A program made the position numbers and the translations under genes. A stretch of 64,000 nt of DNA from Rhodospirillales bacterium (GTDB taxonomy: Bacteria > Pseudomonadota > Alphaproteobacteria > Bin95). The notes below the pieces were generated by a model. The model had not been told where the DNA came from. It saw nothing but the letters and a program-made list of their open reading frames with translations, and did no database searches. Location: NCBI GenBank assembly GCA_038143065.1, contig JAYQLI010000035.1, forward strand, positions 320,001 to 384,000. Reading direction: 5' to 3'. Below are positions 1,325 to 39,317 of the stretch, in pieces (positions within the stretch are counted from its first letter, which is position 1; each line of letters opens with the position of its first letter).

Positions 1325-2158
1325 TACCAGACATAGATTTTTTAAAAGTTCGCCAAGCTCTTAAAGAGGTTTCAGACTCTGAAATTAGGCCTAAGTTGGG
1401 TGCATTATCTCACTCTGAAATTTCTGAAAAATCGGCAGGTGATTTTGTTACCAGTGCTGATCTCGCAGTGGAACAATGCTTGGGTGAGAGGCTGCGTGAT
1501 ATTTTACCATCTGCGGAAGTTCTAGGTGAGGAGGCAGTTGCTGACGGGCGTGCTGCTATTGCGTCTCTAGCCGATGATCAGCTCCATTGGGTAATCGATC
1601 CGATCGACGGAACAGGAAATTTTGCGGCTGGTTTCCCATTAACAGCTGTCATTGTATCGCTGATTAGAGCAGATGAAATTCTTGCTGGTTGGATCCACGA
1701 TCCCTTCGGCGATAGAACTTTTGAAACCTTACTCGGGGAGGGGCCTGGTTAGAAGGGCGTCGTCTCTTATGTAATCGCCCAGAAGATTTGCGGTTAATGA
1801 ATGGTTCTGTTTACGGGAAAAAATTTCGTGAGCGGCGCATGTTTCAGGAAATCTGGGGGAAAGGTCGAGGAAAGTTTGGGGCAATTTGGAACGCAAGGTG
1901 TGTAGGGCAAGAACATATATCCCGTGTAAGCGGCCTTGCTCACTTTGGATGTTATTCTCGGTTGCTCCTTGGGATCACGCTGCTGGCTTTTTGATGCATA
2001 AAGAGTCTGGTGGAATTGGTCGCATGCTTAATGGGAGGCGTTATAGGCCATCTGATCCTTCTGTTGGCGGATTACTTGCACCAGACCTTGAGCTTTGGAA
2101 CCAACTATGGACTATTCTAGTTGCTGATGGAGAGCCACCAGAACTTGAAGCTGATTAG
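1321..2158 (+). CDS. Inositol monophosphatase family protein (three ORF pieces, two indels)
   Basis: DFVTSADLAVE, LGEE and WVIDPIDGTGNF in 1321..1752; PWDHAAG in 1886..2158. Confidence 0.85.
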
Positions 2159-2170
2159 GGAGCTAATTTT

Positions 2171-3040
2171 ATGGCAAAGGTAGCATTTATTGGTCTTGGG
2201 GTTATGGGGTTTCCTATGGCTGGTCACCTTGCAGCAGCTGGGCACGAAGTGACGGTTTACAACCGTAATCAGGGTAAAGCCGAAGAATGGACAAAACTTC
2301 ATGGTGGTCAGGCTGCGCCAACACCAGCGGAGGCCGCAGCTCAGCAGGAGTATGTATTTTCGTGTGTTGGTGATGATCCTGATGTTATTGAGGTTACGCT
2401 GGGCAAAAGTGGTGCCTTTCAGTGCATGAGTAGTGATACTGTGTTTGTTGATCACACAACTGCTTCTGCAGACTTAGCCAGACAACTAGCTAGTGAAGCT
2501 TCTAAAAAAGGTTTTCATTTTTTGGACGGACCTGTCTCTGGTGGACAGGCCGGCGCTGAGAATGGGGTGTTGACCGTTATGTGCGGTGGTGAACAAGAGG
2601 CATTCAACAGGGCCAAGCCACTAATGGAGAGTTACGGCCGGGCAGTCACATTAATCGGTCAATCTGGTGCTGGGCAGCTAGCTAAAATGGTCAATCAGAT
2701 TTGTATTGCAGGGTTAGTCCAGGGCCTGTCTGAAGGTGTCAATTTTGGCATGAAAGCAGGACTTGATATGGATGTTGTCTTAGGAGTGATTTCGAAGGGG
2801 GCTGCGCAGTCATGGCAGATGGAAAATCGTGGTTCCACCATGGTCCAGGGCGAATTTGACTTTGGTTTTGCTGTTGACTGGATGAGGAAAGACCTTCGCA
2901 TTGTTCTACAGGAAGGTGAACGCAACGGTGCACGATTGCCAACCACTGCATTGATTGATCAGTTTTACAAGAATGTTCAGCAGGATGGTGGTGGGCGTTG
3001 GGATACCTCCAGTTTGATTCATCTTCTCAGTAAGGACTGA
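2171..3040 (+). CDS. NAD(P)-dependent beta-hydroxyacid dehydrogenase (3-hydroxyisobutyrate/tartronate-semialdehyde reductase family)
   Basis: FIGLGVMGFPMA Rossmann motif, FLDGPVSGGQAGA, GQLAKMVNQ, MRKDL. Confidence 0.9.
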   Translation: MAKVAFIGLGVMGFPMAGHLAAAGHEVTVYNRNQGKAEEWTKLHGGQAAPTPAEAAAQQEYVFSCVGDDPDVIEVTLGKSGAFQCMSSDTVFVDHTTASADLARQLASEASKKGFHFLDGPVSGGQAGAENGVLTVMCGGEQEAFNRAKPLMESYGRAVTLIGQSGAGQLAKMVNQICIAGLVQGLSEGVNFGMKAGLDMDVVLGVISKGAAQSWQMENRGSTMVQGEFDFGFAVDWMRKDLRIVLQEGERNGARLPTTALIDQFYKNVQQDGGGRWDTSSLIHLLSKD

Positions 3041-3842
3041 TCTTTTTGACCAAGTTCCAGGCCTCATCTTGAGTGGAAAGATCTACCGATGCTGGGTCTT
3101 TCCCGTCTTGTTCCAGTTTGATTTCCATTGCTTTAAAGCGTCTTTCAAATTTATGGTTTGAAGCTGCAAGAGCTGCATCGGGATCGATACCGAGTTTTCT
3201 GGCGGTGTTAATCACTGAGAAGATCAAGTCCCCTACTTCTTCAAAAAGCTCGGCTTTTCCTTCATGAACGGCCTTAATTACTTCAATCATCTCTTCTTGT
3301 GTTTTTGCAAAAGCAGAGTGCCAATCTGGAAAATCGAAGCCAATTCGTGCCGCGCGCTTTTGTAATTTAAGTGCACGTGCTTGGGGCGGTAATGTTCGAG
3401 CAATGCCATCTATGGCACTAGGCTTATTATTATTCCTAATTTTTTCCTGGCGTTCTTCGGCTTTAATTCTTTCCCAGTTTCCAGGGTTAGGTCGTGCAAT
3501 AGCGCCAGTTTCATCAGGGAAGACATGTGGGTGCCTTCTATGCATCTTTGCTGTGATTGCTTCTACTATGTCAGAAAAAGCGAATTTTCCATCTTCTTGT
3601 GCGATTTGAGCCTGAAAAACAACTTGAAGCAGGATATCCCCTAATTCATCACGGAGATCCAGATAATCTTCTCTTTCGATTGCATCCGCAGCCTCATAGG
3701 CATCCTCTATGGTATATGGGGCTATGCTCTTATGATTTTGTTGAAGGTCCCAAGGGCAGCCATCTACAGGATCGCGAAGTCGGCGCATAACCTCAAGAAG
3801 TTTCCCGAGACTATCTTGAGCATTTGCAGTGCTTGATCTCAT
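3027..3842 (-). CDS. mazG: Nucleoside triphosphate pyrophosphohydrolase MazG
   Basis: LRDPVDGCPWD, ELGDILLQVVF, RRHPHVF, EEVGDLIFSVIN, KFERRF; close to hflX, as is usual in Alphaproteobacteria. Confidence 0.95.
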   Translation of the reverse strand: MRSSTANAQDSLGKLLEVMRRLRDPVDGCPWDLQQNHKSIAPYTIEDAYEAADAIEREDYLDLRDELGDILLQVVFQAQIAQEDGKFAFSDIVEAITAKMHRRHPHVFPDETGAIARPNPGNWERIKAEERQEKIRNNNKPSAIDGIARTLPPQARALKLQKRAARIGFDFPDWHSAFAKTQEEMIEVIKAVHEGKAELFEEVGDLIFSVINTARKLGIDPDAALAASNHKFERRFKAMEIKLEQDGKDPASVDLSTQDEAWNLVKKISPY

Positions 3843-35872: not shown

Positions 35873-36614
35873 TCAGTACGTTGCACGACCGCCGGAGATA
35901 TCGAACACACCGCCGGTAGTAAAGCTCATCTCGGCACTTGCTAGCCAACAGGCCATGCTTGCAACTTCTTCCACTGTAACAAAACGATTGCGAGGAATCT
36001 TAGAGAGCATGTAATCGATGTGCTCTTGGCTAATTTGGTCAAAAATACGCGTTTTGCGGCAGCAGGAGTAATGCAATTCACTGCTATGTTATGGGCAGCA
36101 AGTTCCTTACCCAAAGATTTTGTAAAGGCAATTACGCCGGCTTTAGCTGCGGAATAGGGCGATGCATTTGATTGCCTTCTTTACCGGCTATGGATGCGAT
36201 GCTTACAATCCGCCCATAATTCCGATCAATCATCTCTTGTACTACTGCCCTCGAGCAATAAAAGACGGCATTTAGGTCAAGTTCAATTACCTTCCTCCAC
36301 TCAGAGATAGGATAGTCCTTAACTGCTAGAGAGGGGCCCGCGATACCTGCATTATTGATTAAAATATCAACAGGGCCATGCGCATCCCTAGACTTTGCCA
36401 TAGCGATTTCAATAGCGCTAGGATCAGTTACATCACATTGAACACCTAATGTGCCAACTCGTGTGTTTGCAGCAGTCTCAACTTCGGCTGCATCTATATC
36501 CCACATAGAAACCTTTGCGCCCGATGCCAACATTCTGTCAGCAATGGCCAAGCCAAAGCCCTGAGCTCCACCCGTTATAACTGCGTGGCGATCCCGAAGA
36601 TCAATTTCGTTCAT
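35873..36614 (-). CDS. SDR family oxidoreductase (2-keto-3-deoxy-L-rhamnonate dehydrogenase-like; indels)
   Basis: ITGGAQGFG, LINNAGIAG, SIASIAGKEGN, TTGGVFDISGGRATY. Confidence 0.8.
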
Positions 36615-37354: not shown

Positions 37355-37556
37355 TCACAAGCTCCATTCCTAAGATAGGAAAAATTCATCCAACATTTAT
37401 CTACATGCCGATTTTACGATACCTAAACGCGTTGATTTCATAAATTAATTTTTTAAGAGCCAAATCTGTTTTGATCGATCTAGTTAGACTTTTGACTGAT
37501 CGGAAGAATAATAATTTTTTGAATTTGCAAATTATCGAATTGATAATACTCGTTTG

Positions 37557-37598
37557 AAAAAAAAGCCTCCCCCTTTGTTTGGAGCAAATGAGGGAGGC
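37557..37598 (-). terminator. Rho-independent terminator after the peroxiredoxin gene
   Basis: GCCTCCC...GGGAGGC stem flanked by an A8 run on the + strand (U-tract on the - strand), 20 nt after the stop. Confidence 0.7.
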
Positions 37599-37617
37599 CT
37601 ATGGTCCGTAAGAGCTT

Positions 37618-38051
37618 TTATAAAGCTGATAAAACTTCGTCAGGATGCTCTTCGGGCACTACAGGGTCGAAAACCTTTTCGACGATGCCGTCTGGACTGA
37701 TCAGAACTGAGATACGTCTTGGCCTTTCCGATGAAGCATCAGCCGCACCATAAGATATCGACATATTCTTTTCAGTATCTGCTAGAAGATCGTATGGAAA
37801 ATCAAACTTCTCTTTGAATGCCTTTTGATCTTCTGGAGTATCAAAACTAACTCCAAGAATCACGACATTTTTTGATTGAAATTCTTGGATTCGATCACGG
37901 AACCCATTTCCTTCAATTGTTCACCCTCGTGTATCTGCTTTAGGGTAAAACCAGATCAGAACTCTTTTCCTGCCAAGCTCTCAAGCGTTATTTGCGCTCG
38001 ATCCTGGTTAAGAAGACTGAAACTGGGAGCTGTTTTTCCGGCCTCTGCCAT
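37618..38051 (-). CDS. bcp: Selenocysteine-containing BCP/PrxQ peroxiredoxin (in-frame TGA at 37921-37923; one homopolymer indel at ~37965)
   Basis: Reconstructed MAEAGKTAPSFSLLNQD...GKRVLIWFYPKADTRG[TGA]TIEGNGFRD...VILGVSFD...FPYDLLAD...RISVLISPDG. The TGA occupies the peroxidatic Cys position of PxxxTxxC. GGAG RBS before ATG 38051. Confidence 0.88.
37892..37920 (-). promoter_or_regulatory. Candidate bacterial SECIS element
   Basis: Directly 3' of the UGA: ACAAUUGAA-GGAA-AUGGG-UUCC-GUGAUCG, a GGAA/UUCC apical stem with a G-containing loop and a weaker lower stem. Confidence 0.5.
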
Positions 38052-38295
38052 TATTAACTCCTTTGTTCATCGATAGAAATATAGATAAACAAATTGGAAT
38101 TTTAATCAAACGTGTAATGTTGAAAACACACACCTATTGCTGCATGTTTTAAAAACAGGATCTTTTTCGTATCAAGAGATGCAGGCGGGGATCTTGGATT
38201 AATAAAAAAGCTTATTTGTAATAAATAAATACGATTTATTAGATATTTATACTATTTTTTTAACAAATTTATTTATTTATCGGAGTGGATTGAAG

Positions 38296-39317
38296 CTAGG
38301 ATAACCATGCTTCTGAGGCTTCTAAAATAGCATCGTCTTTTAGAGAACGGTCTACGTGTTTCTGAAAATGTTGCGCAGTTGATGTACCAAGTTGGCTAGC
38401 TGACCAAGCACCTTTCATGGAAGATTCTTTTTTCCAGCGCATAAAAAAACCAATTGTTCTTAGCCAAACAGCTTGACGAAATGGCTTTATGCGTTGTGCG
38501 TTAGTATCTGCCATTTTCTCTGGAACGCTTTCGAGCCAAGCTTGGGCGAATGTGTCTCTTTCTTGCGAACTGGGAGACATAGCGGCATCGGGATCCCATC
38601 CGGCAGCAACTTTAATTACCGTATGAGCTAGATCTAACGCGGGGCAGCCATAAACAGGTTTTTCAAGATCGACAAAGCACGCATCTCCAGACGGGCGAAT
38701 AATAAAATTACCAGGATGGGTATCGCTAACACATAGTGCTTCTGGCGTAAGCTCTGAGTGATCTTGAACCATACTGAGAACATCCTTTAGCCTAGAAATT
38801 ATTTCGTCCTTTGCTTTGGGGCCAATTTTTGTTTGAGGCAGGAACAACTTTAACGTTGTCTCAGCCTGCTGGACGATTGAAGCAAGGGGGTTTTGATGCG
38901 TTTCAATTGGAGCGCGGGCTTTTGACAGCGGTAAGGGAAGAGAATGGATCGCGGCTAAGCTGCGGGCTAAACAGGGAAGTTCGGAGGGGTTTTAGGAATT
39001 CTTCCTGCAATTCGTTCAACGACCAGTGCGCCTCGGGGCAATTCTTGGCTAATTGGAATGATAGTGAGTAGGTCTGGCGTTGCACCGGAAGCTTTAGCGC
39101 GGTCGAAACCAGCCTTTTGTAACATTAGCTGTGCTTCAGGGGTTAGGTTCATTTGGCTCAAACGCGGTACTCTAAGTAACCATTTGGATGAACCGAGCTG
39201 AAAATGTGAGTGTGAAACGCCGTTTCCCTGAACTAACGAGAGCTCATGAAGATCTAAATCATAATCTTTTAATGCTGTTTCTACAGCTTGTTTAAAATGA
39301 AGGGGTGTGTCAGTCAT
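38296..39317 (-). CDS. Aminoglycoside phosphotransferase (APH)/kinase-like protein (split by indels)
   Basis: G.G.SHSH, WLLRVPR, SDTHPGNF (Brenner-like motif), FVDLEK, G.PALDLAH. Confidence 0.8.

Follow-up and report, generated by a model that had tools for sequence, protein, structure and literature searches.

Peroxiredoxins (Prx) in which selenocysteine (Sec, U) occupies the peroxidatic position have been reported from marine metagenomes since 2005 (PMC1088965, PMC2398784). In the Sargasso Sea selenoproteome the family, named 'Peroxiredoxin (Prx)' (COG1225, motif TXXU), had 43 genes, which ranked it second in abundance (Zhang, Fomenko & Gladyshev 2005, PMC1088965). In the Global Ocean Sampling (GOS) data Prx (pfam00578, TxxU) accounted for 253 selenoproteins in 34 samples, with 7,348 Cys homologues, and ten neighbouring Prx/SelW pairs were described (Zhang & Gladyshev 2008, PMC2398784). 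A 2006 comparative study gives 12 Prx selenoproteins in sequenced bacteria and, for the Alphaproteobacteria of that time, only FdhA (PMC1794560). A 2026 review places Prx (PF00578, TxxU and PxxxTxxU motif) among the experimentally verified or known families (PMC13188914), and Prx is absent from the main text of the BSepDB paper. Here we describe a gene of this kind in a stretch of 64,000 nucleotides from a Rhodospirillales bacterium (contig JAYQLI010000035.1, positions 320,001 to 384,000), which is called the window throughout. An earlier sequence-only reading of the window had proposed a hidden selenoprotein at 37618..38051 and had mentioned TxxU peroxiredoxins from marine metagenomes, in line with the reports cited above.

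The window gene has the Pfam family, the TxxU motif (T-R-G-U here) and the marine setting in common with the Sec-Prx of Zhang & Gladyshev, the features by which that family is defined. Nothing essential differs, and the gene was assigned to the family by these shared defining features and not by alignment. It is a further member of a long-described family that was overlooked by ordinary open reading frame (ORF) calling.

An in-frame UGA at the peroxidatic position

We hold with high confidence that the locus encodes a 144-residue BCP/PrxQ-type peroxiredoxin with a peroxidatic Sec decoded from the UGA at 37923-37921, and that its split reading frames derive from a deletion in the assembly. The gene and its active-site motif, the conserved UGA, a conserved predicted RNA structure behind it, the Sec machinery of the genome and an intact frame in sequencing data were all seen in this analysis. 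The features needed to follow the argument are:

37618..38051, minus strand: coding sequence of the predicted Sec-containing BCP/PrxQ-type peroxiredoxin, ATG 38051-38049, TAA 37620-37618, 144 aa allowing for one assembly deletion of one base; based on the Pfam AhpC-TSA match, intact orthologues and synteny with the locus of the relative G005
37921..37923, minus strand: UGA, predicted Sec codon at the peroxidatic position of PxxxTxxU (residue 44 of 144); TGA is kept in 45 other genes and aligns with the active-site Cys or engineered Ser of solved BCP structures
38058..38063, minus strand: AAGGAG, Shine-Dalgarno-like, with a 6 nt spacer to the ATG, read from the sequence
37968..37969, minus strand: predicted 1-nt assembly deletion, GG in the window and GGG in run contigs, which splits the gene into two frames

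The minus strand reads tgg ttt tac cct aaa gca gat aca cga ggg tga aca att gaa, and positions 37923-37921 are the TGA. Frame A runs for 31 codons from the ATG at 38051, MAEAGKTAPSFSLLNQDRAQITLESLAGKEF, and ends at a TGA at 37958-37956. Frame B, offset by one base, reads ...RVLIWFYPKADTRG-TGA-TIEGNGFRD... and continues to the TAA at 37620-37618; with the TGA read through it becomes ...GRKRVLIWFYPKADTRGUTIEGNGFRD...SAL. Cys is absent from both frame pieces and hence from the 144-aa product. The ORF listing shows merely an 81-aa tail with a GTG start (37618..37863) and a 31-aa ORF from the ATG at 38051. The sequence-only reading had named the in-frame TGA, an ORF track limited to the last 81 aa, an ATG at 38051 preceded by a ribosome binding site (RBS) and a Cys-free product of about 144 aa. 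All four were borne out when the minus strand was read again, the AAGGAG lying at 38063-38058 and the TGA sitting exactly at the peroxidatic position (YPKADTRG-U-T).

Conservation of the UGA

Searching 61 genomes (the window's own and 60 relatives) with the frame-B protein, we found a close orthologue in 27, each with exactly one in-frame TGA and, excluding the self-match, with 59-84% identity to the query. The Sec form was present in 9 of 10 genomes of the own genus, in all 17 of a second, high-GC genus of the same family, in none of 10 of a third genus and in 1 of the remaining 24 genomes of the class. The exception in the own genus (G008, 96% complete) gave a distant Cys-type match only. 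The genes of all 26 relatives were intact, 144-150 aa long, and had YPKA[DN]T[RP]GUT with TGA as the U codon. TGA has not been reassigned across these genomes, since it serves as the ordinary stop of 18 of these 26 orthologues. The orthologues of the high-GC genus (L024-L046) use TGA twice, as Sec codon and about 100 codons later as stop.

A wider pattern scan, limited to one genome per species, yielded 80 loci. The codon at the peroxidatic position was TGA in 20 of them and TGY (Cys) in 56, and four were unmatched by the motif. By their record titles the TGA loci belong to Alphaproteobacteria and Rhodospirillaceae, to Gammaproteobacteria and Immundisolibacterales and to Gemmatimonadetes; further ones are titled Phycisphaerae and Planctomycetota, Verrucomicrobiales, Kofleriaceae, one 'Clostridia' metagenome-assembled genome (MAG) and one unclassified MAG. 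The alignment of Cys and Sec in homologues that the sequence-only reading had anticipated was thus found, and the in-frame UGA aligns with Cys and is conserved among orthologues, as expected of a selenoprotein gene. Since it recurs at this codon in all 26 relatives and in 20 loci of other phyla, the TGA is, judging from these sequences, more than a chance event.

Contigs of four public sequencing runs (described below) left 37921-37923 unchanged in every case; within this region the contig of run X16 has a synonymous change at 37918 only. Neither TGC nor TGT, which the sequence-only reading had held up as evidence against Sec, was seen at 37921-37923 in the contigs of the four runs.

A predicted, constrained stem-loop downstream of the UGA

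Bacterial selenocysteine insertion sequence (SECIS) elements lie just downstream of the UGA. In the window the following element occupies this place:

37875..37917, minus strand: SECIS-like stem-loop starting 4 nt past the UGA; it is the minimum free energy structure in the window (-12.2 kcal/mol) and the same structure as the RNAalifold consensus

The outer stem pairs 37917-37911 with 37881-37875, the inner stem pairs 37906-37900 with 37892-37886, and the apical loop CGUGAUC spans 37899-37893. For comparison, 66 nt from the UGA onwards were aligned for 43 distinct sequences, namely the window, 22 relatives and the 20 loci of other phyla; four more relatives were omitted as duplicates over these 66 nt. 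The alignment was gap-free, with a mean identity of 83%. RNAalifold placed the outer stem of the 43 genes at columns 9-13/42-46 and the inner stem at columns 19-24/32-37, around a 7-nt loop CGUGAYM. In a version with 12 pairs, 94.4% of the cells were paired, compared to 59.1% and 52.7% when the partners were slid by one column. Two-sided changes were found in one pair, column 9/46 (C-G in 23 sequences, U-A in 8, G-U in 1, unpaired in 11), and several other pairs showed one-sided changes between G-C, G-U and A-U. In the shuffle control the observed paired percentage was reached in 1 of 500 shuffles and the covariation score in 6 of 500. By eye, the outer stem needs a one-base register shift in some sequences, the window included. 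Also by eye, the Planctomycetota MAG locus L070 (1630-1695) has a fully complementary inner stem, GGCUUC...GAAGCC, lying one base off that of the other 42.

The sequence-only reading had placed a different hairpin, GGAA-AUGGG-UUCC, behind the UGA. This hairpin is present in the window but is not a conserved element: its third pair is A-U in 5 of the 43 sequences and unpaired in the other 38. It was ruled out as a conserved element, showing no covariation and competing with the conserved two-stem structure.

Codon usage was compared between 45 Sec genes and 53 Cys homologues, the window itself not being included. A start and length filter had removed the four unmatched loci as well as three with Cys and one with Sec (L074). 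Codon columns were numbered from the UGA as 0, and the columns behind it gave:

Gly +6: GGG in 39 of 45 Sec genes, entropy 0.65; Cys homologues, entropy 1.88
Phe +7: TTC in 45 of 45 Sec genes, entropy 0; Cys homologues, entropy 1.00
Arg +8: CGT in 44 of 45 Sec genes, entropy 0.15; Cys homologues, entropy 1.67
Ile +11: ATC in 43 of 43 Sec genes; column not conserved in the Cys homologues, commonest residue Tyr (21%)

Invariant Gly and Arg columns elsewhere in the same Sec genes (-16, -1, +23 and +75) had entropies of 1.45-1.70. The freezing of synonymous sites at codons +3 to +11 is specific to the Sec forms, and these codon counts argue more strongly for the element than the folding does.

Selenocysteine machinery

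The sequence-only reading had predicted that the organism encodes Sec machinery. In its own genome (4.63 Mb, 52 contigs, 97.6% complete) we found the tRNA-Sec (71.5 bits against a cut-off of 47; tRNA-SeC with anticodon tca according to ARAGORN), selA (496 bits) and selB (435 bits) adjoining each other, and selD (280 bits), all above their curated cut-offs. Across the 61 genomes selA exceeded its cut-off in 41, which include 26 of the 27 Sec-form genomes; the lone miss (G004) is 87% complete and in 510 contigs. The genomes being kin, this co-occurrence is a matter of consistency and not an independent statistical test.

The frameshift and the quality of the assembly

Four public runs, each from a different study, provided Logan contigs that were placed on 37400-38300; runs X1, X5 and X6 are DNA and X16 is metatranscriptomic. 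All four had a plus-strand C inserted behind 37968, which corresponds to a minus-strand G between 37969 and 37968. The extra base yields GCA GGG AAA AGA GTT CTG (AGKRVL), in frame with the ATG, and the corresponding residues of the nearest orthologue (G005, locus L022) are ...SLESLAGKRVLIWFYPKADTRGU... The sequence-only reading had supposed a 1-nt loss within a T-run at about 37965. One base is indeed missing, but in all four runs its place is beside the A4/T4 run at 37965-37968 and not inside it; a base gained at either place gives the identical ...AGKRVLIW... protein.

The X1 contig is more than 99% alike across the whole stretch. Besides the insertion in the gene it carries two further homopolymer insertions within 901 bases, TT in the T-run 37449-37454 (behind 37448) and T in the T-run 37574-37576 (behind 37573), both intergenic; in each of the three cases the window lacks bases in a homopolymer run.

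Other genes are broken as well. The second of two SDR genes nearby (minus strand, 36614-35873) reaches a normal C-terminus only after two or more changes of frame, and its first break lies where G005 reads ...GNPNASPYSAA. Its ORF 36132..36614 ends in ...GKEGNQMHRPIPQLKPA before a stop, and the corresponding stretch of the G005 orthologue is ...GKEGNPNASPYSAA. The normal C-terminus, ...GGVFDISGGRATY and a stop, resumes in other frames and extends to the TGA at 35875-35873. These breaks are probably homopolymer deletions of the assembly, to judge by the orthologue. An APH/choline-kinase-like gene, also on the minus strand, is split into a 116-aa ORF (38967..39317) and a 183-aa ORF (38296..38847), and its G005 counterpart at L022 is one intact ORF of 349 aa (2126..3175); another assembly indel is likely here. 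The selA ORF of the own genome (L009 1555-2844; G000:C35:594751-596061) has 429 aa, with an in-frame TAA inside the hidden Markov model (HMM) match, and its 496 bits compare with 512-535 in the same genus. Its C-terminus was probably frameshifted by assembly error, and this would not indicate a defective Sec pathway.

The assembly evidently carries frequent homopolymer deletions. Because the contigs of all four runs restore the frame, homopolymer indels occur nearby and other genes are broken too, we read the peroxiredoxin frameshift as an assembly error; compared in this way, it is almost certainly a one-base deletion of the assembly and not a feature of the organism. Programmed frameshifting was ruled out, as no orthologue needs a shift and the sequencing data are without one.

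Family, structure and phylogeny

The frame-B piece matches Pfam AhpC-TSA (PF00578) with 80.4 bits (cut-off 26), and the 31-aa frame-A piece gives a weak match to the first 26 positions of the same model (E 0.043). The PxxxTxxC motif is present with U in place of C (P-K-A-D-T-R-G-U), together with the conserved Arg; P37, T41, C/U44 and R113 are invariant in the alignment. These Pro, Thr, Cys (or Sec) and Arg residues are catalytic in peroxiredoxins. The best NCBIfam match is the Bcp model PRK09437 (115.4 bits for L022, 81.8 bits for the window piece), and COG1225 is the Bcp group. The closest solved relatives by sequence are 3drn and 5enu, in which the Sec aligns to the active-site Ser or Cys and R113 to their Arg.

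A structural model was built with AlphaFold2 (AF2) on the orthologue L022, which is 84% identical over the frame-B part, from an alignment of 10 sequences. The model reached a predicted local distance difference test score (pLDDT) of 90.9 and a predicted template modelling score (pTM) of 0.88. Its top Foldseek matches (TM 0.83-0.87) were M. tuberculosis BcpB 5epf, S. solfataricus Bcp1 3drn, Bcp4 3hjp, 5enu, AhpE and Xanthomonas PrxQ, so the model has a thioredoxin-like Prx fold.

Compared to the Cys-type BCP/PrxQ proteins (E. coli Bcp model PRK09437; 3drn, 5epf, 5enu, Xanthomonas PrxQ 5iiz), the fold, the size and the active-site Pro, Thr and Arg are the same. These proteins have a peroxidatic Cys and mostly a resolving Cys five residues further (+5; Cys in 81% of the 53 Cys homologues), whereas the Sec forms have Sec at the former position and Asn or Lys at +5. 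Among the 45 Sec forms +5 is Asn in 56%, and Lys in the remaining sequences inspected; in the window it is Asn. The resolving Cys typical of 2-Cys BCPs is therefore absent, as the sequence-only reading had noted. 1-Cys BCPs exist, and a missing resolving Cys is compatible with the BCP subfamily. At column +24, 56% of the Sec genes have Cys (GCSFD) and the window has Val; the wholly Cys-free state is particular to the window, G005 and G042.

PrxU of Eubacterium acidaminophilum is a biochemically characterised Sec peroxiredoxin. It likewise has a peroxidatic Sec, but belongs to a different subfamily and is longer (NF040737, a model of 233 positions), and the match to that model reaches 41.8 bits, below the cut-off of 270. 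The Cys relatives retrieved include 1-Cys BCP-like proteins from Nitrospina and Thermoplasmata (CT[MIV]E[GA][KQ]GF[RQ][DE]). These resemble the Sec forms in having Lys or Gln and no Cys at the resolving position; unlike the Sec forms they have a Cys active site and lack the frozen nucleotide pattern and the stem-loop.

A Cys-type BCP paralogue without internal stop lies in the own genome at G000:C35:463174-463533 (41% identical), and the same holds for most relatives. Because this paralogue is present, the Sec form is an additional peroxiredoxin and not the only one of the genome.

In a quick, unrooted maximum-likelihood tree, which is not a final one, all 45 Sec rows fell into one clade of 47 rows with two long-branch Cys rows (support 84 in the SH-like approximate likelihood ratio test, SH-aLRT). 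Within it, 41 rows formed a subclade with support 95 in which the phyla were mixed. The Sec/Cys label needs two changes on this tree, of which the well-supported branches force only one. As a sequence tree it fits a single origin with horizontal spread. It is possible, and somewhat less than an even chance in our estimate, that the Sec forms constitute one '1-Sec' BCP lineage without resolving Cys (WYPKADT[RP]GUT.EG[NK]GFRD), which arose once, spread horizontally through at least six phyla of aerobic bacteria from sea and soil and carries an almost invariant in-frame SECIS. The phyla concerned would be Alpha- and Gammaproteobacteria, Gemmatimonadota, Planctomycetota, Verrucomicrobiota and Myxococcota, with a Bacillota-labelled MAG.

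Genomic context

Downstream of the gene one further feature was identified:

37557..37600, minus strand: intrinsic-terminator-like hairpin (37600-37563) overlapping a U8 run (37564-37557), beginning 18 nt past the stop codon, based on folding

This hairpin folded with -21.7 kcal/mol (z -3.43), and none of 200 shuffles was equally stable. A simple terminator scan listed none at the 3' flank, the same flank that on folding gives the strong hairpin with the U8 run.

The gene neighbours are two SDR genes and the APH-like kinase, both in the own genome (G000) and in G005. No conserved operon partner was seen when these two loci were compared, and no partner gene was linked. With the SelW/Rdx-like model (PF10262) there were 0 matches in the own, 97.6% complete genome, so the Prx/SelW pairing of the GOS data was not seen here. 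In the high-GC genus the flanking DNA appears different, as viewed in frame translations only.

The metatranscriptome run X16 contains a 447-nt contig that spans 37604-38049, almost exactly the gene, ending just past the stop on one side and 2 nt short of the ATG on the other, and carries both the TGA and the frame-restoring base. Since contigs are blind to strand and level, and DNA may occur in such libraries, this contig is a weak hint of transcription.

Alternative explanations

Taken as assembled, with two frames, an internal stop and only 81 aa seen by ORF calling, the locus could be the remnant of a BCP gene that a nonsense TGA and a frameshift have disabled, so that the full protein is no longer made. 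We consider such a dead gene very improbable, and this explanation is already largely refuted: 45 further genes of several phyla, all intact, have TGA at this very catalytic codon, the frameshift is absent from the contigs of four of four runs, the synonymous sites past the TGA are under extra constraint, and the gene has an RBS and a terminator of its own. A related explanation accepts the family as real selenoproteins and takes the one-base deletion as genuine in this strain, making its copy a recent pseudogene. The deletion is present in the deposited assembly, and the contigs of metagenome runs may derive from other cells of the population; since those contigs and not the assembly's own reads were compared, a strain-specific frameshift keeps a formal place among the explanations. 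However, the 99%-alike X1 contig is intact and has the other homopolymer indels in non-coding DNA (37448 +TT, 37573 +T), the SDR gene (at least two shifts) and the kinase are also broken within about 3.5 kb, and the C-terminus of selA is shortened. Because this error pattern fits systematic assembly error and not the selection-free decay of one gene, we regard a strain-specific deletion as improbable, if less so than a dead gene.

The UGA might also be decoded in another way, as Cys through Cys-tRNA(Sec), as Trp by near-cognate read-through or under a reassigned code, or translation might restart at the GTG at 37863 and give the 81-aa piece. The selenium content is a prediction from the sequence, and the 81-aa ORF does have a GTG start. 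Against these possibilities, TGA is an ordinary stop in 18 of the 26 related orthologues, the genome has a complete Sec system and selA accompanies the Sec form in 26 of 27 genomes, the conserved stem-loop stands where bacterial SECIS elements lie, and the 81-aa piece would lack the entire active-site motif. Taken together, other decoding or a restart seems scarcely probable, to the same degree as the dead gene.

Several observations weigh against a functional Sec peroxiredoxin at this locus, or at least temper it. The covariation of the stem-loop is thin: one of 12 pairs is two-sided, most columns are invariant, and coding constraint acts on the same bases. On its own the window hairpin has a z of -1.62, with 14 of 200 shuffles as stable, and a permissive-threshold Rfam scan of 37600-38100 gave no SECIS or credible family, its four matches all having E values of at least 1.9 and scores far below gathering. 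The run data are Logan contigs rather than raw reads, and for none of the runs is it established that the assembly was built from it. With 115.4 bits L022 stays below the equivalog cut-off of 140 for PRK09437, so that the protein is BCP-like by best match and structure and not a PRK09437 equivalog. Near the active site the AF2 model is less certain, with pLDDT 81 and 70 for the two 10-residue blocks that make up residues 31-50. Finally, actual selenium incorporation, peroxidase activity and the identity of the reductant are what we infer.

Proposed mechanism

On the reading of the locus as an intact gene with a Sec codon, a mechanism can be drawn from established bacterial Sec decoding and peroxiredoxin chemistry. 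The stem-loop at 37917-37875, within the coding sequence, would recruit SelB with Sec-tRNA(Sec), and Sec would be inserted at the UGA instead of termination. In the conserved pocket of P37, T41, U44 and R113 the selenolate would attack a hydroperoxide and become a selenenic acid, for which an external thiol (thioredoxin, glutaredoxin or glutathione, for example) may then act as the direct reductant. An external reductant would be required because the resolving position is Asn and the protein is without Cys. The 1-Sec mechanism with an external reductant, as the sequence-only reading had already suggested from the absent resolving Cys, is a reasonable proposal on these grounds.

Significance

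The Sec-Prx family has long been known and is abundant in the ocean, and the present finding adds a member to it, not a concept. One by-product is that the comparison brings out the in-frame SECIS-like element of the family clearly. Another concerns the assembly: with homopolymer deletions as frequent as here, other apparent pseudogenes in it are untrustworthy. If the Sec forms are indeed one 1-Sec lineage, its few Cys-free members, that of the window included, would be a natural minimal system, with an external reductant as the only means of recycling the selenenic acid. For the organism, the antioxidant repertoire and the selenoproteome would be under-counted, since gene callers shorten the gene to 81 aa and it is split further by a long-read-style indel.

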